Source: Bdellovibrionales bacterium (GTDB taxonomy: Bacteria > Bdellovibrionota > UBA1018 > CAIMNF01). Taken from it: a stretch of 64,000 nucleotides of DNA. The position numbers and the translations under genes are program-made. The first letter of the stretch is position 1; each line of letters begins with the position of its first letter. Where the stretch lies: positions 10,580-74,579 of the forward strand of contig CANHQK010000001.1 of assembly GCA_947462765.1 (NCBI GenBank), read 5' to 3'. The notes under the pieces are model-generated. The model was given only the letters and a program-made list of their open reading frames with translations, was not told where the DNA came from and did not search any database. Of this stretch, positions 1 to 9,650 are shown one piece after another.

Positions 1-362
1 TCCGAGAGCGTGAACATCCCGTCCGCGGTGGTCTCGCCACATGCGATTCCAAGCTTCCGCTCGGCATAGCTCATCAGCTCATCCGCCCCCCTGAGACAGC
101 ACGCCACATTGGTGCAGATCCGGAGATGGTTTTTTCCGACCGGCTTCAGATTGTACATGGTGTAGAAGCTGGCAACCTCACGGATCTGGGCCTCATGCAC
201 ACCGATGTATGCGGCAATCTCTGCCAGGATTTCTGGAGGAAGCCAACCACACTCGGCCTGCGCCTGATGAAGTGCAGGGAGAATCAGTGCTTTTTTATTC
301 GGATATCTCGGCTCGAGATTCCTCATGGCATCATAAAACTTTTGAGTCAGCAGCTTTTCCAT
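1..362 (-). CDS. nuoE: NADH-quinone oxidoreductase subunit E (NuoE, 24-kDa type), N-terminal part; the 3' end runs off the window
   Basis: Absent from the ORF track because there is no stop in the window. My translation of the minus strand from the ATG at 362..360 gives MEKLLTQKFYDAMRNLEPRYPNKKALILPALHQAQAECGWLPPEILAEIAAYIGVHEAQIREVASFYTMYNLKPVGKNHLRICTNVACCLRGADELMSYAE..., which looks like NuoE. The start forms an ATGA overlap with the nuoD stop, and the gene follows nuoABCD. Confidence 0.8.
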   Translation of the reverse strand, partial: MEKLLTQKFYDAMRNLEPRYPNKKALILPALHQAQAECGWLPPEILAEIAAYIGVHEAQIREVASFYTMYNLKPVGKNHLRICTNVACCLRGADELMSYAERKLGIACGETTADGMFTLS

Positions 363-1642
363 CAGCGATCCAGCTCCCCTGCGATGACATTGATGCTTCC
401 GAGCGCCGCGACCAGATCCGCGATGTATTCACCCCGGATCATCGGGTCGAGCCCCTGATAGTGCCAGAAGGAAGGTCCACGAATGCGCATGCGATGCGCG
501 GCGGGTCCGCCCTTGCTGACAATGTAAAAACCGAGCTCTCCATTCGCCGCCTCGAAAGAGGTGTAAGCCTCCCCCGCCGGAACATTGAACCCGGTCATGA
601 AAAATTTGAAGTGGTGAATCAACCCTTCCATCGTGTTGTAAACCTGGTCCTTCTCAGGAATGCGAGTTCTCTTGTCCTCGGACCAGATCGGCCCGCGCTT
701 GATGCGGTCCGCACACTGGGTGAGAATATTCAAGGATTGGCGCACCTCTTCGAGTCGGACATAATAACGATCGAACACGTCGCCGGTCTGGGCAACCGGC
801 ACATCAAAGTCCACCTGGTCGTAAAACATGCAGGGCTGGTCTCTGCGGAGATCAATATCCACACCGGCCGCGCGAGCGTTCGGTCCCGTGAAGCTGTACT
901 TGAGACAGTCTTCTCGATTCATAATGGCCACACCCTTGGTTCGTTTGAGCCAGATCCGGTTCTCGGTCAGGAGACGATCCATCTCGTCCACTACGGCGCG
1001 GGTTTCCTTGACCCAGTCTTTCACTTCCTTTTCCCAGCCTTCCGGGGCATCGGCCATCAGTCCGCCAATCCGGGTATAAGAAGTAGTGAGCCGGGCTCCG
1101 CAAAGTTTTTCGATCAGCGTGTAGGCTTTTTCGCGCTGGTGGTAACCGTAGAGAAAGTACGAAAATGCGCCCAAATCGACGGCGTTGATCCCCACGCAGA
1201 TCAGGTGATCGATCACGCGAGCGAGCTCGGCACACATCATCCGGATCCAGATCGCCCGCTCCGGGACTTCAATTCCCATCAAGCGCTCGACCGCCATGGC
1301 GTAAGTCACGTTATTGATCAGTGCCGAACAATAATTCAGGCGATCGGTGTACACCACAAACTGATGGTAAGTCCGGTTTTCACCGAGCTTTTCCTTGGCC
1401 CTGTGGGTATACCCGAATTCGCAGTAGGATTTTTCGATGATTTCCCCATTGAGCCTCGCCATACAGCGGAAGGCTCCGTGCATCGCCGGGTGGGTGGGAC
1501 CGATGTTAACCAGGACCTTTGAGTCCTCGAAAATGTCGTCCGTATCCCGCTTCACCGTGACATCGTATGTGGAGGGGATTCCCCATCTAGCAACGTCGAG
1601 GGGAAGGTCGGTTTTGAAGCTTTTCGGATTGGAATCACTCAT
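362..1642 (-). CDS. nuoD: NADH-quinone oxidoreductase subunit D (NuoD, 49-kDa)
   Basis: 426 aa. Motifs GPTHPAMHGAFR and YTDRLNYCSALINNVTYAMAVERL, with C-terminus INVIAGELDR. Position is after nuoC. Confidence 0.95.
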   Translation of the reverse strand: MSDSNPKSFKTDLPLDVARWGIPSTYDVTVKRDTDDIFEDSKVLVNIGPTHPAMHGAFRCMARLNGEIIEKSYCEFGYTHRAKEKLGENRTYHQFVVYTDRLNYCSALINNVTYAMAVERLMGIEVPERAIWIRMMCAELARVIDHLICVGINAVDLGAFSYFLYGYHQREKAYTLIEKLCGARLTTSYTRIGGLMADAPEGWEKEVKDWVKETRAVVDEMDRLLTENRIWLKRTKGVAIMNREDCLKYSFTGPNARAAGVDIDLRRDQPCMFYDQVDFDVPVAQTGDVFDRYYVRLEEVRQSLNILTQCADRIKRGPIWSEDKRTRIPEKDQVYNTMEGLIHHFKFFMTGFNVPAGEAYTSFEAANGELGFYIVSKGGPAAHRMRIRGPSFWHYQGLDPMIRGEYIADLVAALGSINVIAGELDR

Positions 1643-2202
1643 TTTAATAACTCCGGATCGAGAGGCTCGGGGGTCAGAAACACCTGATATCCCCTGAGCG
1701 GGTAGTCTTTTCTTAAGGGATGCCCCTCCCAGCGCATATCCATGAGGATCCTGCGCAAATCGGGGTGACCCTCAAATCGGATTCCGAACATGTCATAGAT
1801 CTCGCGCTCAGCCCAGTTGGCCCCTTCCCAGACCGGGATGAGCGTCGGAGAGGTTTCCTGGTCCGCAATGCGCACCTTCACTCTCAATCGGGCCTTGGTT
1901 GTGGGATTCATCAATTGAAGAACCAGGCGGAATCTCGGTTCCGACTCCTCGTCGGTTGCGGTGTAATCAGTCAGAAATGAAAAGCCCAATCCGTCCTTGA
2001 GGCGCCCGAGAACCGCCAGCATTCCGGATTTCCGCACATGAATCACCGGCACATCCGTCGCCGCCTCTCGCGGCATCAGGATCTCCTCGATGAACTCGGA
2101 AAAATCAACCCTCAGCGCTTCAATCACCGCAGTCCACTCGGTGAGATACTTGTCGTAATGTCCGCCATAGATGGTTTTGACCGGCGTGTTGATATCCATC
2201 AC
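1639..2202 (-). CDS. nuoC: NADH-quinone oxidoreductase subunit C (NuoC, 30-kDa)
   Basis: 187 aa with [29 protein letters not shown], typical of NuoC. 4-nt overlaps with nuoB and nuoD. Confidence 0.93.
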
Positions 2203-2699
2203 ACTTCTCCCCTCAGCGCCCGCTCACGTCGCTGGGAGTGAGTCTCTCCTTCCGCGATCATTTCTTTCAGGCGCAAAAGTGCGTTCAACAGACCCTCCGG
2301 GGCAGGCGGGCAGCCTGGAACATAGACATCCACCGGAACCACGGTATCGATCCCCTGGGTGACGCTGTAGACATTGAAGATCCCGCCCGAAGAGGCACAC
2401 GCCCCCATGGAGATCACCCACTTCGGATCAGCCATCTGGTCATAGATGTTGCGCAACACCGGGGCCATCTTGAGGTTCACGATCCCGGCGACAATCAGGA
2501 GATCGCTCTGCCTGGGCGAGAATCGAACCACCTCGGCACCGAATCGCGCCATGTCGTAACCGGAAGCCAGAGTCGACATGAGCTCGATCCCGCAACAACT
2601 GGTTCCGAAAGGAAGCGGAAACAGCGAGTGCTTCCGCGCCCAGTTGATCATGTCATCCAGCTTGGTCGTGAAAAAATCTGAAGATCCGTCCTTGCCCAT
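2199..2699 (-). CDS. nuoB: NADH-quinone oxidoreductase subunit B (NuoB, 20-kDa, N2 cluster)
   Basis: 166 aa. Motifs [20 protein letters not shown] and VPGCPPAPE give the four N2 cysteines, including the tandem CC. Confidence 0.95.
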
Positions 2700-2702
2700 G
2701 AT

Positions 2703-3065
2703 TTACTCCCACTCCAGTGCGCCACGACGGATGACATAAATGTATCCGACGAGAAGAATGAATACGAACACCATCATCTCGATGAGAATGAACTCGCCCG
2801 TGGTTAAGAACCGCTTGTAGACAACCGCCCACGGATAGAAAAACACCGTCTCGATGTCGAAGAGAAGAAAGAGGATGGCAACTAGGTAGAACCGGACCGA
2901 GACCCGGTGCTTTTTTGTCGGGCCGGATTCACCCACTCCGCACTCGATCGGAGAATCTTTTGTTTTGTTCGGAAGCTTCGGTCCGAGCCAGGTGGTGATG
3001 AGGAGGACGGCTCCGCCGATGCACACCCCTGCGGCCATCATGACCAGTACAGGAAGGTATTCCAT
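2703..3065 (-). CDS. nuoA: NADH-quinone oxidoreductase subunit A (NuoA)
   Basis: 120 aa with 3 TM segments and FDIETVFFYPWA. Lies directly upstream of nuoB. Confidence 0.85.
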   Translation of the reverse strand: MEYLPVLVMMAAGVCIGGAVLLITTWLGPKLPNKTKDSPIECGVGESGPTKKHRVSVRFYLVAILFLLFDIETVFFYPWAVVYKRFLTTGEFILIEMMVFVFILLVGYIYVIRRGALEWE

Positions 3066-3103: not shown

Positions 3104-4468
3104 TTACCACAAATTCAGGAGCGGGTGCTCTTTTAATAGGGAATAGAGGTCCGGGCGCAAGAGTGTCAAACCGATGACACAGAGAAGATAAAGCCCGATA
3201 AAGAAGACCTCACCCCGCTGGAGAGCGCGCAGTTCTTTCGCGCCGTTTCTCGCCAGAAGGACAGTTCCCATCATCCTGATCACCGCCAGCACCAGCGCGA
3301 ACCAAGAAACGATCATCAGGACGCCTGCGACCCAGTTTCCGCCAATGACGATGTCGTGGATCAACCGGTAGTATTGGTCGCCCAGCACAAGAGGCGGAAC
3401 CCCCATCAGTGCAATGAGGGCCCCCGTTATGAAGCCTTTCTTCCGGTAGTTCTCATCCAGGAAGGCATGTGATGCGAGCGCAACCGTCAGCAAGAGCGAA
3501 AGAGAGATCGAGAAAAATGCCGGGAGGATCTTATCGGCCGGTAGGAGACAAAGGAAGAAACCCAATCCAAGCAGGACCGGGAGCGCGGCACTGAACCACC
3601 GGTGATGCTCCTTTGCCCTGACCGCTTGATAAGCATAACGGAGCGTGAAGGCTCCGAACACGAGCGCGATCATCAATTGCGCCTGCTGTTTTCCGAGAAA
3701 AGCGGCCTTACTGAAAAAAGGCACGCCCACCCTGAGCCAAAAAACCTGGATCATCAGGTGCATTCCAAAGTAGAGCACCCCGAGACCCACCGGAGCCCGC
3801 CCCGGATGCGGTAGAGCCTCCAGCAGAATCACAGACCCCAACAGAATCAGAATCGCGGGAAGCCAGACCCCGGCCTCGGTTCCAGAATAGGATTCGAGTC
3901 CGCTCAGCCAATCCCCGAGCAACTGTGAGCCCGAGAGAAAACTGGAGAGGACAACCAACAAGGACAATACTGCGATCCAGCTTCCGAAGATCATGCTTCT
4001 CGAGCGAATGAGACGGACCCAAGCCTGGCTTTTTCCTGATTCAATCAGAATGAGGCTGGTGGAACAAAAATAAATTCCGACCGCGGCACCGAGAAACAGC
4101 ACCAAGTGGTTTGCTTGAAGCAGAAGGGAAACGAAGGCGGAGAGGAAGAGCGTGAACAAGGTGGTCAGTTGCTTGTCGCGCACACTCAGCTCACTGTGAA
4201 AATAAAAGCCCATTGAAAAAACGGAGAACATGACCAAAGACAAGAGACGGCCGAAATAGGACAGGGCATCAGAGTGAAGAACCTTGACGGGCGATTCGAA
4301 ATAGGCCAGATCGGGCCGGAAAGCGAAATACCCGAGAACAATCGCCGACGACAACGCGGCAACGGGCGCAATGGATCTCACGGTCAGGACCCTAAAGTTA
4401 ATCAGGACCAACGTCACAAACAGCATTCCAAGAATAGCCAACTCCGGCAACCAATTGAGCATCGTCAC
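3104..4468 (-). CDS. Polytopic membrane protein, divergent NuoN/antiporter-like subunit of the complex-I-like module
   Basis: 454 aa with about 13-14 hydrophobic segments. The N-terminus HSDALSYFGRLLSLVMF resembles NuoN. LPHPGRAPVG sits where antiporter-like subunits carry H-W-x-P-D-x-x-x-G-A-P. 4-nt overlap with the upstream gene. Confidence 0.6.
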   Translation of the reverse strand: MTMLNWLPELAILGMLFVTLVLINFRVLTVRSIAPVAALSSAIVLGYFAFRPDLAYFESPVKVLHSDALSYFGRLLSLVMFSVFSMGFYFHSELSVRDKQLTTLFTLFLSAFVSLLLQANHLVLFLGAAVGIYFCSTSLILIESGKSQAWVRLIRSRSMIFGSWIAVLSLLVVLSSFLSGSQLLGDWLSGLESYSGTEAGVWLPAILILLGSVILLEALPHPGRAPVGLGVLYFGMHLMIQVFWLRVGVPFFSKAAFLGKQQAQLMIALVFGAFTLRYAYQAVRAKEHHRWFSAALPVLLGLGFFLCLLPADKILPAFFSISLSLLLTVALASHAFLDENYRKKGFITGALIALMGVPPLVLGDQYYRLIHDIVIGGNWVAGVLMIVSWFALVLAVIRMMGTVLLARNGAKELRALQRGEVFFIGLYLLCVIGLTLLRPDLYSLLKEHPLLNLW

Positions 4469-5448
4469 TTAGCACCTCCGAGAAGGAAGAACCCGACACC
4501 CGCGGCAGCCTGGACCAGCACCACCAGCAAAAAGCGAATCCGCGTGGTCCGACCGGGAGCCGAAAGACCATACCCGGGAAGCGCCACGAGCGTGACCACC
4601 TGGAGCAGGAACCCTGCGAGAAGTGCCGCGATCCAGACCGGATTCATGGAAATCGCCATCTTCATCGAAAAAAAGTACGCGGTGAAACCGGCCATTCCGG
4701 GCAATGCCACCACGGCTACTCGCGAGAATGCACTGAACCGCTCGCCCATCTGGTCTCCCAACGAGAGCAATGCCGCGCCACCGATCGCAGCAACTGAAAG
4801 GGCCCAAAGAGTGGTACGCCCGAGGACATCCTGGTCGATCACCAGGATGAAGAGAGCCAGGCCCAACTGCGCGAGGGCCAGGTGCATGATGGACGACTTC
4901 ATCCTCAGTCGCAAGGTCGACATCAGGCTGCCGTAAAGATAGGTGAACAACCCAACGAAAGAAAGTGCAACGTCCCAGAGCTGGCCGTTTTCCGCCTTCA
5001 TTTCACTCCGGATCTTGAGGAGGATCTCGATCCCTGAAAGGGCTGGAATGATGACCGACCCGAGGAACGAAGCCAGGGTCTGGCGTTCATAGAGCCTGCT
5101 GAAGAAGAAGAGGTGCGCACCGGTTGGGATGGACAGCAACAATCCCGAAAAGATCAGGAGGGTGGCCTGGGGGTGCTCTCCCAGGGAGGCGCCGAATATG
5201 GCAACGAAAATGCCTGCGATTGAAATGAAGTGGTGCTTCTGGACAATCGGATGATCGGCCCGCCTCGAGCCACGGGTGGACTGGAGAAATCCGATCATTT
5301 GCAGGGTCAGCAGGAACAGCAGACTGACCGGCACCGACTTGGAAAAGAAAATCGCGGCCGCAAAGGGAACCGAGAGCCAGCTTGCCGGGGGCAGGCAAGG
5401 CAACCAGGAAAGCGCCACCAATGCCGAGGGAAGGCTGAATTCCAGCAT
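4465..5448 (-). CDS. Polytopic membrane protein, truncated NuoM/NuoL-like (antiporter-like) subunit
   Basis: 327 aa and hydrophobic throughout. KSSIMHLALAQLGLALF resembles the conserved K..AYSSi.HmG segment, and LPGMAGFTAYFFSMKMAI resembles the P.l.GF.sKf segment of Mrp/NuoLMN-type subunits. Confidence 0.5.
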   Translation of the reverse strand: MLEFSLPSALVALSWLPCLPPASWLSVPFAAAIFFSKSVPVSLLFLLTLQMIGFLQSTRGSRRADHPIVQKHHFISIAGIFVAIFGASLGEHPQATLLIFSGLLLSIPTGAHLFFFSRLYERQTLASFLGSVIIPALSGIEILLKIRSEMKAENGQLWDVALSFVGLFTYLYGSLMSTLRLRMKSSIMHLALAQLGLALFILVIDQDVLGRTTLWALSVAAIGGAALLSLGDQMGERFSAFSRVAVVALPGMAGFTAYFFSMKMAISMNPVWIAALLAGFLLQVVTLVALPGYGLSAPGRTTRIRFLLVVLVQAAAGVGFFLLGGAK

Positions 5449-5451
5449 GAA

Positions 5452-6294
5452 TCAAAGCCCTCCCTTAATTGCCAGCATGAACAATCCGAAAAATGCCAAA
5501 GCACCAGAAACCAGATAGAAAACCCTGTCCAGTGCCGATCCGGGAGTGGGAACCGCATAAACCGGTTCCTCACCACCCCATGCCCGCCGTCCGTCGACCA
5601 AGCGGGCGCCGAAAGTGAGTGCCCGAAGACCGCTGGTTCGGAAAGCGACCAGACTGCGGCGGAAGCTATCGAGGCGCCACTTCGTCCACGCAAATAGCGC
5701 GGCCGCAACAAACAAGAGGGCGGAACCGAGGGCGATCACCATGTTGTTCTCCGACCACCTTTCGAACTCCCCTGAGAAGCCCTGTAAAATAGTGGCCACG
5801 CCAACGAGCTCGAGAATGGTGAGCACCCGCTCCTCGTTTTCCGACTTGAACCATCTGAAAGATTCCGCCGCAACCCAATAAATGCCGGCCGCAACGAGAG
5901 CGATTTCCGGGCGTTCAGGCTGCGGATAGTACTGGCGATACAACAAGAGCGCAGGGAGTATCCCCAGAAACCCCTTCCCGAAACTCAGGGAAACCAAGAG
6001 CACCCCGATGAAGGCGAAGAACTCTCCGAAAGGAGCGGGAGATATGGCCCCTCCCATGATGAGGAATATCCCCAGAAAGTCCTTCAGCTGGACCCAGGTT
6101 TCGGCCTTCCGATCGATGCGGTGCCAGATCATGAGCCCCGCCACCAAGGCGGCCACCATAGGCCCGTGCAAAAGGGATCCGAGGATGACCATCACAAAAG
6201 GAAGTGCGCGCCTCTCTCGAATGAGTCCTACGGCACTGAACAGGAAAAAAAGGATCGTGGTCTGGTCGGGCTGACTGAGTTCAAGATTCATCAT
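5452..6294 (-). CDS. Polytopic membrane protein of unknown function (complex-I-like module)
   Basis: The ORF track gives 5452..6336. I prefer the internal MMNLELSQ start at 6294 or 6291 because it reduces overlap with the upstream gene. About 8 hydrophobic segments and no motif I recognise. Confidence 0.55.
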   Translation of the reverse strand: MMNLELSQPDQTTILFFLFSAVGLIRERRALPFVMVILGSLLHGPMVAALVAGLMIWHRIDRKAETWVQLKDFLGIFLIMGGAISPAPFGEFFAFIGVLLVSLSFGKGFLGILPALLLYRQYYPQPERPEIALVAAGIYWVAAESFRWFKSENEERVLTILELVGVATILQGFSGEFERWSENNMVIALGSALLFVAAALFAWTKWRLDSFRRSLVAFRTSGLRALTFGARLVDGRRAWGGEEPVYAVPTPGSALDRVFYLVSGALAFFGLFMLAIKGGL

Positions 6295-6523
6295 TTTCGA
6301 GTTGAACCTCCCCACGCGAAACCGCCAGTAGCGCAATCGACAGAACGGCGAACAACATCACCGCTCCAGGCAGAAGTGGAATCGACGACTCCCGCGAGGA
6401 CACCACCCCCAGCAAGGAGAGTGAAACCCTCAGCATGGCACCCGAAAACTCCAGAACATCAGATGCGGTGAAGAGCGTGTAGAGCGAAAAAACCAGGAAA
6501 AATAAAAATGCAGCCGCTATCAT
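6281..6523 (-). CDS. Small 3-TM membrane protein in the NuoK position
   Basis: 80 aa and hydrophobic (MIAAAFLFFLVFSLYTLF...LEFSGAMLRVSLSLLGVV...). ATGA overlap with the upstream gene. The NuoK-like assignment rests on position and size only. Confidence 0.45.
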   Translation of the reverse strand: MIAAAFLFFLVFSLYTLFTASDVLEFSGAMLRVSLSLLGVVSSRESSIPLLPGAVMLFAVLSIALLAVSRGEVQLENDES

Positions 6524-6870
6524 CGTTTCCTCTTTTCAACGGCCAAACCGACCATCATCGCTGCAGAAAGCAGGGAGATCAGGATCACCACCGGAAGGAA
6601 GTGGCTGTACTCGATCTCGGCCGGACCCTGGCCGGAGGAGTCCTGGATCATCGGAAACAGTGTCGCAGAAAGAGCCAAAGACAGAGCCAGGGCACGAACA
6701 CGCCTTCCCGCCGGAAGACTCTCGGACCCACCTCCGAGCAGCAACCGCATACGGAAAAGCTGAATCCGGATCAGCAAGCCGAGGACCAGAACCACCACCC
6801 CCGAGAAAGGGGAGCGGGTTGCCACAAAGCCCGAAACCATCAAAAGGAAAATCAGATCGAAAACCCTCAT
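6520..6870 (-). CDS. Small membrane protein in the NuoJ position
   Basis: The ORF track extends to 7074, but the Arg/Cys-rich N-terminal part overlaps the NuoI-like gene. The internal start MRVFDLIFLLMVSGF at 6870 forms an ATGA overlap with the NuoI-like stop. 116 aa, 3 TM. Confidence 0.5.
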   Translation of the reverse strand: MRVFDLIFLLMVSGFVATRSPFSGVVVLVLGLLIRIQLFRMRLLLGGGSESLPAGRRVRALALSLALSATLFPMIQDSSGQGPAEIEYSHFLPVVILISLLSAAMMVGLAVEKRKR

Positions 6871-7277
6871 GTGAGCTCTCCCCTGCCGAAGCTCATCTTG
6901 AGGTCTTTGGGATCGAACACGGCCGCTTGCACTTCTTTGGTTTGAATGAGGGAGTTCGGCTCGCAGACCTCGACACACAAGCCGCAAAAGACACACTTGG
7001 AAAAATCGATTTCGAAACGCGATACCCAAGGGCGATTGTTGCGTGCATTGACACTCGCTTCGACCTCGATGCAAGACGACGGGCAGACCCGTGCACAGTC
7101 ACCGCAACCCGTGCATTTTTCGATCTCATTGAAGAGCAAGCCCCGGGCCCGCGCAGGAAAGTCGTCTTTCCCACGAGACGAAACCGGGTCCGGATAGAAC
7201 TCGGTATCGATCTTGCGCATCTCGTTCTGATTCAGGAAGTGTCCGACGATCTTCTTAAACATGGGGACCCCCTCCAA
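6867..7277 (-). CDS. NuoI-like 2x[4Fe-4S] ferredoxin subunit
   Basis: 136 aa with two CxxCxxCxxxCP-type motifs: CTGCGDCARVCP and CVFCGLCVEVCE. An alternative start MFKKIV lies at 7262. Confidence 0.85.
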   Translation of the reverse strand: MEGVPMFKKIVGHFLNQNEMRKIDTEFYPDPVSSRGKDDFPARARGLLFNEIEKCTGCGDCARVCPSSCIEVEASVNARNNRPWVSRFEIDFSKCVFCGLCVEVCEPNSLIQTKEVQAAVFDPKDLKMSFGRGELT

Positions 7278-8061
7278 TTACGCCGAACCAAAGCATGGCC
7301 ATGAGCCAGAGCGCTCCCGTGATGGGAAACAGATAAATGATCGAGATTCTGAGCAAGTCCTTCTGATGGAATCCGGGAAAATAGATTCCGAAAATTCTCG
7401 ACCCCAGGTACAAGACCGCCGCCTTAAAATGAATATCGAAGAACCACTCTCCCCCACCCAGAAACAGCTTGGCAGTGAGCAAGGACCACACATAGAAGCG
7501 GGCCGACGGCAACCAGCCGCTTTTCTCGCTCATTCCCCGGAACGGATGCTCCCCGAACAGGATCATTCCGCACAGCTGAAACGGGATGACAAAGGCCAAG
7601 AGGACCGGACTCCAGACAACTCCACTCATGTCCGTGGTCCGGGAGCAGGTGAAGCACACGAACAGACACAGGAGCGCAATGGCCCCCGCAATTGAAAAGC
7701 GGACCTGTTGTCCATCCGCACGGATCCTGGACACCACGCTTTGGGTTCCCAAGGACATCCAAACCAACAGGAAACCGATCAAGGCGATATAAATGAACAT
7801 CAGGTATTCGACCCGGATCCCCAACAGGAACACCATCGATAACTGGAAGAGATAGAGTAGCCAGGTGCCGGGTTCGGTCTGCGTCCTCAACTCCATCCTG
7901 GCGTCGACCCAGGTCTGCCAGATAAATCCGACCCATCCGACCTGCTTCCCGACCCGGGATTCATGTCGGGCAATCATCCGTTCGCTGATCGCATACATCA
8001 GGAAGGAAACCGGGAAAACCGAAGCCAATCCGGAAATCATCACCAGCAACGCCTCGATCAT
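7255..8061 (-). CDS. NuoH-like (HycD/EchB-type) membrane subunit, short form
   Basis: 268 aa. AISERMIARHESRVGKQ matches the NuoH aERk..a..Q.R.GP segment. FGEHPFRG sits where NuoH has the E..PFD loop. About 7-8 TM. Confidence 0.75.
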   Translation of the reverse strand: MIEALLVMISGLASVFPVSFLMYAISERMIARHESRVGKQVGWVGFIWQTWVDARMELRTQTEPGTWLLYLFQLSMVFLLGIRVEYLMFIYIALIGFLLVWMSLGTQSVVSRIRADGQQVRFSIAGAIALLCLFVCFTCSRTTDMSGVVWSPVLLAFVIPFQLCGMILFGEHPFRGMSEKSGWLPSARFYVWSLLTAKLFLGGGEWFFDIHFKAAVLYLGSRIFGIYFPGFHQKDLLRISIIYLFPITGALWLMAMLWFGVIGGGPHV

Positions 8062-9065
8062 CGGTCGATCTCCGAGATAGAAAATGAAAGACTCTCTAGA
8101 ACGACCGCCAGATCCTCGAGAGACTCGCCCTCCAGCGCCGGTCCGATTGATTTTACAATCGAAGAAGAGGGCGAACGCAATTCAAGTTCGGTGACAGCAC
8201 CCTCAGAGTCGAGGCCCAAAGCGATACCCCAGGCGCCCCGTAAAGTGTCTCGCTCGTGTGAGATTCGCCCCGCCTTCGAGACGAAAGCGCCGAAGTATTC
8301 TCCTTTGGGTCCCCGTCTCAACAGTTCCTGCATTTCACCCGCCATCTCCCTGCAGTTTTGCAGGGAATAGATGAGGCGCGACTCCACATGACTGACGAAT
8401 CCATACCGCGTGCTTTCAATCGAGGCCTCGCTGACAAAGCCGAACTCACCTCGGTCGAGGACCTGCCCGAGGTTTCGCATGCGGTTCTGGAAAACATGCG
8501 TCCACCGGAAGAGCGCCTCGATCCTCGGAAAATCCTCTACGAAATTCCTGCTCCAGGTGTCCAGACGCTCCTGGAAGCCCTCAGTGATGTCATACCTGGC
8601 ACCCCCGGGAATCAAGTAGTAGTAACCGTACCGGGACCCCGACAACAACTCGAGAAGATCAAGCAAGGACTCGCGGTGCTTCAAGATCGAGTGAAACAGG
8701 ATTTTCACCCCGAGCCGCCTCGACATGTTGGCCAGGTACTTGAGCTGGAAGTTCAGCTCTGAAAGACTCGTGGTGATGTCACGGATCCAGCGAATCCGGT
8801 CGCCAGCCTCGACTCCGGAGATCTTCTCGACCGCTTCACTGAAGACCCGATCCAAAAGGAGCGCACTCTCGGGCTCCACCCGACCGACAGTGAGCTGGGC
8901 TCGCCGGTGATGCTGTCCAAGGGCCTTTTTCTCGATCTCACGTGACGCATAACCGAATCTCGCGTCCACGCTGATGATCCGATCACCACTCATGCCCAAG
9001 CTGAGCTTCATCGGGCCGGGAAGCCACTCGTGGATCGGCCCGATTTCGATCGTCTCCTGGATCAT
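8058..9065 (-). CDS. NuoD/[NiFe]-hydrogenase-large-subunit-like protein lacking metal-ligand cysteines
   Basis: 335 aa. IGPIHEWLPGP aligns to GPTHPAMHG of the canonical NuoD. GRVEPESALLLDRVFSEAVEKI aligns to DRLNYCSALINNVTYAMAVERL. The C-terminus SFSISEIDR aligns to AGELDR of NuoD and to DPCxxCxDR of hydrogenases. There is no Cys at either [NiFe] motif. Confidence 0.75.
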   Translation of the reverse strand: MIQETIEIGPIHEWLPGPMKLSLGMSGDRIISVDARFGYASREIEKKALGQHHRRAQLTVGRVEPESALLLDRVFSEAVEKISGVEAGDRIRWIRDITTSLSELNFQLKYLANMSRRLGVKILFHSILKHRESLLDLLELLSGSRYGYYYLIPGGARYDITEGFQERLDTWSRNFVEDFPRIEALFRWTHVFQNRMRNLGQVLDRGEFGFVSEASIESTRYGFVSHVESRLIYSLQNCREMAGEMQELLRRGPKGEYFGAFVSKAGRISHERDTLRGAWGIALGLDSEGAVTELELRSPSSSIVKSIGPALEGESLEDLAVVLESLSFSISEIDR

Positions 9066-9439
9066 GTCTGAACCTCGCGGAGCGACAGGATCCCGTTCAT
9101 GATCGCTTCAGGACGGGGAGGGCAGCCCGTGACATAAATATTGACGGGAAGTCGCGGGTCTCCGGGAGTCGGGAACAATCCTCCCCCGCAAGCACAAGTT
9201 CCGATCGCGATCACATACTTGGGTGACCTCATCCGGTCAAAATGGGCAACCGCCTCTTCGAACAGCACCCGGTTGAGCGTTCCCTGGACCACCAGCAGGT
9301 TGGCATCCTCCGCGTGTTCCGACGCGACACACCCGAGCCGCTCCAGATCGTACCGGCTGGATTCGGTCTGGATCCAATCATCTCCGCAACAGGTGAGACC
9401 CACCCGCACGTATTTCAGTGTGGGCTTAAACTTCGTCAT
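9062..9439 (-). CDS. NuoB-like small subunit with a complete [4Fe-4S] cysteine set
   Basis: 125 aa. Motifs GLTCCGDDW (tandem CC), IGTCACGGG and VTGCPPRPE. 4-nt overlap with the NuoD-like gene. Confidence 0.85.
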   Translation of the reverse strand: MTKFKPTLKYVRVGLTCCGDDWIQTESSRYDLERLGCVASEHAEDANLLVVQGTLNRVLFEEAVAHFDRMRSPKYVIAIGTCACGGGLFPTPGDPRLPVNIYVTGCPPRPEAIMNGILSLREVQT

Positions 9440-9650
9440 CTGCGTCCTTTTTGAGGTAATGTTGGGTCGCCAGAAAGAATGACAAAAACACTACCATCAT
9501 CACGAGAATCGCGATTAAATACGGGATGATCCTGATCTCGCTCGAGATGAATAGAGGGAGTGCCACCAATAGGGGGATCCACAGGTAAAGTATGACCTGC
9601 GTAAGCTGTGTCGTCTTGATTTCAAAGGGCAAAATCTTCCTAGGATCCAT
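9426..9650 (-). CDS. Small 2-TM membrane protein, first gene of the complex-I-like module
   Basis: 74 aa with two hydrophobic spans (VILYLWIPLLVALPLFI and IIPYLIAILVMMVVFLSFFLA) and an acidic tail. 14-nt overlap with the NuoB-like gene. Confidence 0.5.
   Translation of the reverse strand: MDPRKILPFEIKTTQLTQVILYLWIPLLVALPLFISSEIRIIPYLIAILVMMVVFLSFFLATQHYLKKDADDEV

Follow-up and report, generated by a model that had tools for sequence, protein, structure and literature searches.

A reduced second complex-I-type gene module beside the nuo operon of a Bdellovibrionales bacterium, with a NuoB-like cluster subunit and a NuoD-like subunit lacking the [NiFe] cysteines and the quinone head-group residues

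Comparisons of complex I with its hydrogenase relatives usually span very distant lineages. In the complex I of Thermus, the quinone head group is bound by the triad His38/Tyr87/Asp139 (PMC4758237), and the tandem-Cys type of the N2 cluster site appears together with Fpo and with quinone-type reactivity (PMC4758237). The "ancestral" NUO11 complexes (Nautiliales, Desulfurobacteriales and Sulfolobus), encoded by 11-subunit nuo-type clusters without NuoEFG, contain a NuoD that lacks His38 and has non-H-bonding residues at the Tyr87 and Asp139 positions; these complexes are presumed not to reduce quinone, and they keep vestigial [NiFe] cysteines 1 and 3 (PMC4758237). In the Ehr complexes, the large subunit is devoid of Ni-Fe ligands and is accompanied by a small subunit and by membrane subunits (PMC6349859), and the Ehr cluster of Geobacter is Ech-like in composition, with EhrA, EhrC, EhrL, EhrS and others (PMC7894505). 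We analysed a stretch of 64,000 nt (hereafter the window) from a Bdellovibrionales bacterium (assembly GCA_947462765.1, contig CANHQK010000001.1, positions 10,580 to 74,579), which contains a pair of genes for a NuoB-like and a NuoD-like protein, designated B′ and D′, located upstream of a canonical nuo operon. A literature search revealed no description of this module of Bdellovibrionota.

Judged from its sequence, the B′/D′ pair belongs to a second, accessory membrane complex of the complex I type, of which it is the cluster-carrying core. The whole module probably specifies a complex-I-derived, Ehr-like accessory complex that is still redox-active. The two open reading frames (ORFs) overlap by 4 nt and are both located on the minus strand:

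9062..9439, minus strand: B′, NuoB/PSST-like [4Fe-4S] subunit, 125 aa (C17 and C18 at 9391..9386, C82 at 9196..9194, C106 at 9124..9122)
8058..9065, minus strand: D′, NuoD/49-kDa-like subunit, 335 aa (Pro16 at 9020..9018, Pro65 at 8873..8871, Arg117 at 8717..8715)

B′ matches the Pfam family Oxidored_q6 (PF01058) with 63 bits (cut-off 27), and scores below the cut-offs of the curated NCBIfam NuoB models (NF005012, 107 bits against 116; TIGR01957, 100 bits against 143). Its best sequence matches are the NuoB chains of complex I, and MbhJ and MbsJ match too. The original prediction, made from the window alone, attributed to this protein all four cluster cysteines, including an adjacent pair of the complex I N2 type rather than the CxxC of hydrogenase small subunits, and proposed checking whether they align with cluster ligands. 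All four do: in the HMMER alignment with solved NuoB chains, C17-C18 coincide with the tandem cysteines, and C82 and C106 with the third and fourth ligands. In the comparison with a CxxC-type small subunit (locus L016), only the second cysteine of the CC pair is aligned with a cysteine. The four residues are invariant in 13 B′ sequences, representing the miniature and full-size versions described below, and in canonical NuoB. Compared with full-size B′, the protein of the window lacks about 20 N-terminal residues and a loop of 6-13 residues.

Two further arrangements of such subunits were observed among the loci inspected for comparison. The CxxC-type small subunit of L016 (L016:11031-11846, from a Desulfatitalea metagenome-assembled genome, MAG) is fused behind a ferredoxin-like segment; the large subunit encoded next to it has the C-terminus ...NKSFNLSYCGFDL instead of a DPCxxCxxR motif. 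Two Thermoproteota MAGs (L014:9461-11131 and L015:3524-5185) each contain a single open frame of about 555 aa in which a tandem-Cys NuoB-like part is directly fused to a NuoD-like part without an intervening NuoC; the NuoD-like part contains GPQHPGSGH..., and the frame ends in ...FPPECDR.

D′ (335 aa, against 426 aa for the canonical NuoD of the window, lengths that the original prediction gave correctly) matches the Pfam family Complex1_49kDa with 66 bits, and NuoD/FpoD models match as well. Its scores with the curated NCBIfam NuoD models are below their cut-offs (NF004739, the best, 123 bits against 360; TIGR01962, 96 bits against 459). Among solved structures, the best sequence match is MbhL (E 4.9e-21), and MbsL matches with E 1.9e-13. 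In the HMMER alignment with MbhL (6cfw_L), RVEPES of D′ is placed on RMCGIC and SFSISE on DPCLSC, so that the four cysteines of MbhL face E64, S67, S328 and E332. All four [NiFe] Cys positions are thus non-Cys, exactly as had been proposed for GRVEPES (hydrogenase R-x-C-G-x-C) and for SFSISEIDR (DPCxxCxDR), and no conserved Cys column was found at the sites of these motifs in the D′ family of the genus. It is therefore well supported by the alignments that D′ is not a hydrogenase subunit, and a hydrogenase reading was rejected, since the Ni-Fe cysteines are absent.

The alignment with Nqo4 (2fug_4) placed GPIHEWLPG on GPQHPSTHG. His34 is retained and His38 is replaced by Pro16, which agrees with the predicted loss of the second His in IGPIHEWLPGP, the counterpart of GPxHPxxHG. 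Two further replacements, both absent from the original prediction, were found in D′: Tyr87 corresponds to Pro65 and Asp139 to Arg117. The description of a mixed catalytic pair, with a complex-I-type cluster site in one partner and both kinds of ligands lost in the other, is therefore right, and is strengthened by these additional substitutions. D′ retains the NuoD fold according to its AlphaFold2 model (102-row alignment), which has a mean pLDDT of 96 and a pTM of 0.93; the top Foldseek matches of this model are Nqo4 and mitochondrial 49-kDa subunits, with TM scores of 0.88-0.91 normalised to the query. With respect to full-length relatives, two segments, of about 19 and about 25-40 residues, are missing from the C-terminal half.

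The conservation of these residues was examined in 47 close and 120 distant clusters of D′ sequences (Thermus numbering). The close family, of about 47 clusters, is composed of proteins of 335-342 aa, 51-99% identical, from MAGs of Bdellovibrionales/Oligoflexia. The second tier, obtained with an exhaustive profile search, contains relatives of 330-386 aa with the shared signature GPxHxxLPGPxK, DRxDPExAxF and SLDLSIxEVDR. The His38 position is occupied by Pro in 44 of 44 close and 113 of 117 distant aligned sequences, and the Tyr87 position, again by Pro, in 47/47 and 118/120, respectively. Arg is found at the Asp139 position in 46 of the 47 close clusters, and Ala or Ser in the distant tier. 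The His38 substitution, proposed for a test in orthologues, thus holds in both tiers, as does that of Tyr87, and the alignments of D′ itself placed neither His or Tyr at the His38 and Tyr87 positions nor Cys at the [NiFe] motifs. Within the genus, the pocket loop GPIHxWLPGPMK and the motif R-x-E-P-E-S hardly vary, and the full-size version has similar sequences at these sites. Because the substitutions are already present in the full-size version, they are ancient, and not a local peculiarity.

Three other Cys columns, with the consensus contexts LAxCxAVE, RVxxxCxxxxxR and RGxLxCxxxS, are conserved (95-100%) in full-size D′ proteins (L018-L023, P0206-P0324). They occur neither in the miniature D′ of the window nor in canonical NuoD, and could constitute a lineage-specific metal or redox site. 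One full-size relative, P0280, is filed under a Methylotenera sp. MAG, while the other named relatives belong to Bdellovibrionota; a binning error is the probable cause, the alternative being a transfer.

B′ and D′ are part of a ten-gene cluster arranged in nuo order (A′-slot, B′, D′, H′, I′, J′, K′, L′, M′, N′), without C′. It is located between mfd, which is divergently oriented, and the canonical 14-gene nuo operon, immediately upstream of nuoA. On the 3′ side of D′, and on the same strand, there follow H′ (268 aa), I′ and five membrane proteins of 116, 80, 294, 327 and 454 aa. The remaining genes of the module and the neighbouring canonical genes are as follows:

9426..9650, minus strand: A′-slot gene, 74 aa; two hydrophobic, probably membrane-spanning stretches; overlaps the start of B′ by 14 nt
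7255..8061, minus strand: H′, NuoH/ND1-like membrane subunit, 268 aa; assigned by hhalign and fold; TM5-6 loop shortened
6867..7277, minus strand: I′, NuoI-like ferredoxin subunit, 136 aa; two [4Fe-4S] motifs; family matches
6520..6870, minus strand: J′-slot membrane protein, 116 aa; assigned by gene order only
6281..6523, minus strand: K′-slot membrane protein, 80 aa; assigned by gene order only; conserved in close orthologues
5452..6336, minus strand: L′-slot membrane protein, 294 aa (about 280 aa if the start is Met15); NuoL position
4465..5448, minus strand: M′, truncated antiporter-like subunit, 327 aa; weak match to Pfam Proton_antipo_M; hhalign
3104..4468, minus strand: N′, NuoN-like subunit, 454 aa; hhalign
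2703..3065, minus strand: canonical nuoA
2199..2699, minus strand: canonical nuoB
1639..2202, minus strand: canonical nuoC
362..1642, minus strand: canonical nuoD (nuoE-N lie beyond the start of the window)

N′ and nuoA are separated by a spacer of 38 nt, which contains a ribosome-binding site. No terminator was found between these two genes, and the module and nuoA-N are for that reason probably co-transcribed. The canonical operon runs on to nuoN in the same contig, so the genome encodes a complete 14-subunit complex I. The primed proteins are 23-38% identical to their canonical counterparts. The arrangement mfd/module/nuoA-D is syntenic in 11 close related loci, across which the identity of D′ falls to 42% and that of canonical NuoD is 84-98%. 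The canonical NuoD of the window has an N-terminal extension of about 40 residues, contains Asn-Tyr where Thermus has Asp86-Tyr87, and is highly conserved (the 84-98% given above) across relatives whose D′ proteins diverge strongly.

Both CxxCxxCxxxC motifs of I′ were present in all 18 I′ orthologues examined and in canonical NuoI. Three predicted [4Fe-4S] binding sites, two in I′ and one of the tandem-Cys N2 type in B′, are therefore strictly retained in the module.

The membrane subunits proved more difficult to assign. H′ has no match in Pfam, and profile hidden Markov models for H′, J′, K′, L′, M′ and N′, each made from the family in the genus, detected no canonical Nuo subunit in the genome of the window. 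Matches of the module membrane proteins to single canonical sequences in hhalign were too weak to use. When the full-size relatives (second tier) served as a bridge in the profiles, only H′, M′ and N′ were resolved: H′ against second-tier plus canonical NuoH (97% probability, E 1e-10), N′ against second-tier plus canonical NuoN (95.5%, E 1.4e-8 over 444 columns) and M′ against second-tier plus canonical NuoL/M (81-86%, E about 1e-5). The AlphaFold2 model of H′ (pLDDT 79) has ND1/NuoH as its top Foldseek matches (TM 0.70-0.77). The TM5-6 loop of NuoH lines the quinone tunnel; in H′ this loop is shortened and its acidic stretch is gone. J′ and K′ gave no significant hhalign match to canonical subunits. 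The homology of J′, K′, L′ and the A′-slot protein stayed undemonstrated even when bridged through an intermediate version of the module (L021). A structure search with L′ (Atlas) yielded a weak lead to Proton_antipo_M (TM 0.42 on a poor model). The A′-slot protein, whose ORF lies in the spacer between mfd and B′ and falls just short of the 75-aa threshold of the ORF list, occupies the same position in 11 related loci (L001-L011), with 46-97% identity, and its homology to NuoA was not demonstrable by hhalign (E 0.11). The true start of J′ is 6870, not 7074, as indicated by the starts of its orthologues.

Several residues of the canonical proton path have been lost. In full-size M′, the TM5 Glu, TM8 Lys and TM12 Glu are already absent and Arg replaces the TM7 Lys; in full-size N′ the TM12 Lys persists, and the TM5 Glu and TM7 Lys are missing. 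In N′ of the window the TM12 Lys is also replaced, by Tyr, and the HxWxPD motif is gone. Because of these losses in M′ and N′, redox-driven proton pumping of the complex I type appears unlikely, or would at least be altered.

A three-chain model, in which the binding of H′ to D′ and B′ was scored, supports this association with a score of 0.77 (best control 0.28); in the benchmark, the mark set for this score was attained by 58 of 80 solved complexes and by 2 of 110 mismatched pairs. The runs agreed in at least 94% of contacts, with a partner pLDDT of at least 77. In the model, contacts are made by D′ residues 118-129, close to Arg117, and by H′ residues 31-41 (a loop) and 172-181 (the shortened TM5-6 loop). 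This result expresses a likeness to the NuoD/NuoB/NuoH junction, and may reflect the memory of the model, since complex I structures have already been solved.

In the phylum survey, 400 genomes were sampled and D′ matches were accepted at E <= 1e-35. The close type of D′ was detected in 11 of the 14 genomes of the window's genus, and the distant type in 53 of the 58 genomes of a sister family (f3) of the same order; no match was found in other orders. In sister families of this order of Bdellovibrionota, the site between mfd and nuoA is occupied by a full-size cluster of 11 genes in nuo order, A′B′C′D′H′I′J′K′L′M′N′ (L018-L020, L022 and L023). The version at L021 is intermediate. Ten of the eleven genes of L019 were scanned against Pfam (L′ lay outside the scan) and matched the expected families, A′ just below the cut-off. 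The three versions differ in the sizes of their products:

Full-size version (sister families): D′ 346-380, H′ 325-363, L′ 544-647, M′ about 495, N′ about 490 aa
Intermediate version (L021, no C′): D′ 330, H′ up to 302, L′ 414, M′ 353, N′ 389 aa
Version of the window's genus (no C′): D′ 335, H′ 268, L′ 294, M′ 327, N′ 454 aa

The version of the window has shrunk by about a third, and its antiporter-like subunits measure about 300 residues, against about 500-650 in the full-size version. G185 and G157, which represent two species of the window's genus (genomes 92-93% complete), lack the module altogether, and mfd lies about 250 bp from nuoA; at both loci (L028, G185:C1:86000-103000, and L029, G157:C9:5000-22000) all ten genes have been cleanly removed. 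The original prediction regarded the B′/D′ pair on its own. It missed the membership of the pair in a module that is the miniaturised orthologue of a second nuo-like cluster, of 11 genes, found across the order, as well as the loss of canonical proton-path residues in the membrane arm and the deletion of the entire module in some congeners.

The selective pressure was estimated for nine of the ten genes (the A′-slot ORF was left out) by comparing the genes of the window with those of three close relatives. The dN/dS values, which are rough because dS is saturated, were 0.02-0.11, the lowest being those of I′ (about 0.02) and B′ (about 0.03), with D′ at about 0.04. In terms of dN, the primed genes evolve several-fold faster than the canonical ones. 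The primed genes are under purifying selection and are not pseudogenes; the pseudogene reading was rejected because more than 11 genomes carry intact frames, with dN/dS far below 1.

In a quick maximum-likelihood tree of D subunits, which was midpoint-rooted and sampled by similarity to D′ and in which rate artefacts are possible, the primed D sequences were placed outside a supported clade (SH-aLRT 97) of canonical NuoD and [NiFe] group 4 large subunits. Canonical NuoD of Bdellovibrionota grouped with other NuoD proteins; together with the identity of 23%, this rules out a recent duplicate of canonical NuoD. The tandem cysteines, the lack of vestigial cysteines and the complex-I-like C-terminus of D′ point, with moderate confidence, to a secondary loss of the quinone site from an ancestor of complex I/Fpo grade, and not to a primitive state.

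Among the described systems, the Q-module of complex I (Nqo4/NuoD, Nqo6/NuoB, Nqo8/NuoH) shares with the module of the window the folds of D′ (TM about 0.9), H′ (0.70-0.77) and B′, the four-ligand tandem-Cys site, the nuo order of genes, a two-cluster NuoI-like I′ and a similar modelled D′/B′/H′ interface. It differs in that D′ has Pro/Pro/Arg at the positions of His38/Tyr87/Asp139 and is about 45-90 residues shorter, B′ lacks the N-terminal segment, and there is neither a C subunit nor an NADH-input module. Moreover, the membrane subunits of the module are much shorter and have lost canonical Lys/Glu residues, and its B′ and D′ score below the curated NuoB/NuoD cut-offs. In the case of Mbh and Mbs (Mbx) of Pyrococcus (6cfw, 6u8y), MbhL/MbsL match D′ and MbhJ/MbsJ match B′, but the MbhL cysteines are replaced in D′, B′ has CC instead of the hydrogenase-type CxxC, and the gene order and the set of membrane subunits are different.

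The module corresponds to the loose definition of Ehr, having a large subunit without ligands, a cluster-bearing small subunit, and NuoH-like and antiporter-like membrane subunits. The last three features are shared with the Ehr cluster of Geobacter sulfurreducens (GSU0739-45), whose role is unknown (PMC6349859; PMC7894505). Judged by the published description, the Geobacter cluster differs from the module, which is nuo-ordered, comprises 10-11 genes with slots for NuoA/I/J/K/L/M/N and is joined head-to-tail to a canonical nuo operon. The "ancestral" NUO11 complexes resemble the module both in gene content, as 11-subunit nuo-type clusters without NuoEFG, and in the loss of the head-group residues of NuoD. 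However, their cluster site is of the hydrogenase type, without tandem cysteines, and two of the [NiFe] cysteines persist (PMC4758237), whereas the module has tandem cysteines, lacks the vestigial ones and adjoins a canonical NUO14 operon in an aerobic lineage. The NUO11 gene set (A B C D H I J K L M N) is found in full-size relatives (L019), but not in the version of the window, which has no C′ and in which four slots are assigned by position. Databases annotate the relatives of D′ as "NADH-quinone oxidoreductase subunit D" or as hypothetical proteins, and the NuoD label is misleading for metabolic reconstructions of Bdellovibrionota.

On balance, we lean towards a redox-active accessory complex with an acceptor site that is neither of the hydrogenase nor of the canonical quinone type, and with weak or no proton pumping. 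In such a complex, (i) a soluble donor would dock at I′, where electrons would enter, (ii) the electrons would pass through the two I′ clusters and then the N2-like cluster in B′, (iii) an acceptor in the remodelled D′/H′ cavity would be reduced, this being something other than H+/H2 or a quinone bound in the canonical His/Tyr manner, and (iv) complex-I-type proton pumping by M′/N′ would be absent or altered. A terminal Fe-S cluster that would feed an altered pocket, as originally proposed, is consistent with the conserved cysteines of B′ and I′, with the strongest purifying selection falling on these two subunits and with the docking model of H′. Several observations speak against a redox-active complex. 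The module contains no NuoEFG-like genes, and no pyruvate/2-oxoacid:ferredoxin oxidoreductases (PF01558, PF01855) were found in the 91%-complete genome, which leaves no candidate donor. J′, K′, L′ and the A′-slot protein are assigned by position only. The module is dispensable, being wholly absent from two species of the same genus, and its stepwise shrinkage fits a fading function. The saturation of dS also weakens the argument from selection, and the position of D′ in the tree does not by itself show descent from a quinone-reducing ancestor. A more far-reaching version, which we consider unlikely, is that of a working, naturally minimised machine of the complex I type, whose N2-like cluster would serve a new, conserved site lined by Pro/Glu/Arg (GPIHxWLPGPMK, R-x-E-P-E-S and Arg117); this site would act on a substrate, or as a redox sensor, new to the superfamily.

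It is also conceivable, although we would not expect it, that the module is a catalytically dead relic, which turns over no substrate, keeps its clusters for the folds of B′ and I′, has a structural, assembly or regulatory role beside complex I, and is heading for loss. The decreasing series, in which full-size, intermediate and miniature versions and outright absence occur inside a single order, and even a single genus, suits this explanation, as do the loss of every known substrate-binding residue, of proton-path residues and of C′, the failure to find a donor system and the several-fold higher dN of the primed genes. The dN/dS of 0.02-0.11 across nine of the ten genes contradicts it insofar as pseudogenes are concerned; both Fe-S subunits are the most constrained, and the exact sites of the pocket (GPIHxWLPGPMK and R-x-E-P-E-S) are strongly conserved, which is unexpected for a disused pocket. 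The apparent location of the module in one transcription unit with nuoA-N, the lack of its own C and E/F/G genes in the window's genus, and the complex I type of the tandem-Cys B′ and NuoI-like I′ would agree with an alternative set of subunits, in which B′, D′, H′ and I′ (and perhaps the primed membrane subunits as well) take the place of the canonical ones in some complex I and borrow NuoC and NuoEFG, to give an isoform with a different acceptor site. This seems improbable, given that the full-size orthologues, with their own A′ and C′ and a complete membrane arm, form a self-sufficient set of 11 subunits, and that mixed assembly is doubtful with the N-terminal segment of B′ lost and only 23-38% identity to the canonical proteins. 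Finally, the module might still reduce membrane quinone, at a shallower H′/B′ site or via other residues of D′: a tandem-Cys N2-type site is linked with quinone or phenazine reactivity (PMC4758237), the NuoH-like H′ docks at the D′/B′ interface in the model, and the lineage is aerobic and quinone-respiring, with a complete canonical complex I. We regard this as very improbable, since none of the three head-group residues is retained and Pro has taken the place of two, the TM5-6 loop of H′ is shortened, two segments of D′ have been lost relative to full-size relatives, and the literature search gave no precedent for quinone reduction without Tyr87.

At this locus, a single genomic position in one order exhibits the full set of 11 subunits, a miniature and a clean deletion, with the Fe-S sites and the tandem cysteines invariant wherever they are present. 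If the favoured redox-active complex exists, it would bring a new acceptor chemistry to the N2 cluster, and would offer a minimal scaffold for studying the roles of the tandem cysteines, the beta1-beta2 loop and the NuoH loops without bound quinone. If the module is inactive, it would be a record of the stepwise dismantling of a respiratory machine. Should it be a minimised machine that still works, the size series would amount to a natural deletion experiment on the dispensable parts of complex I.

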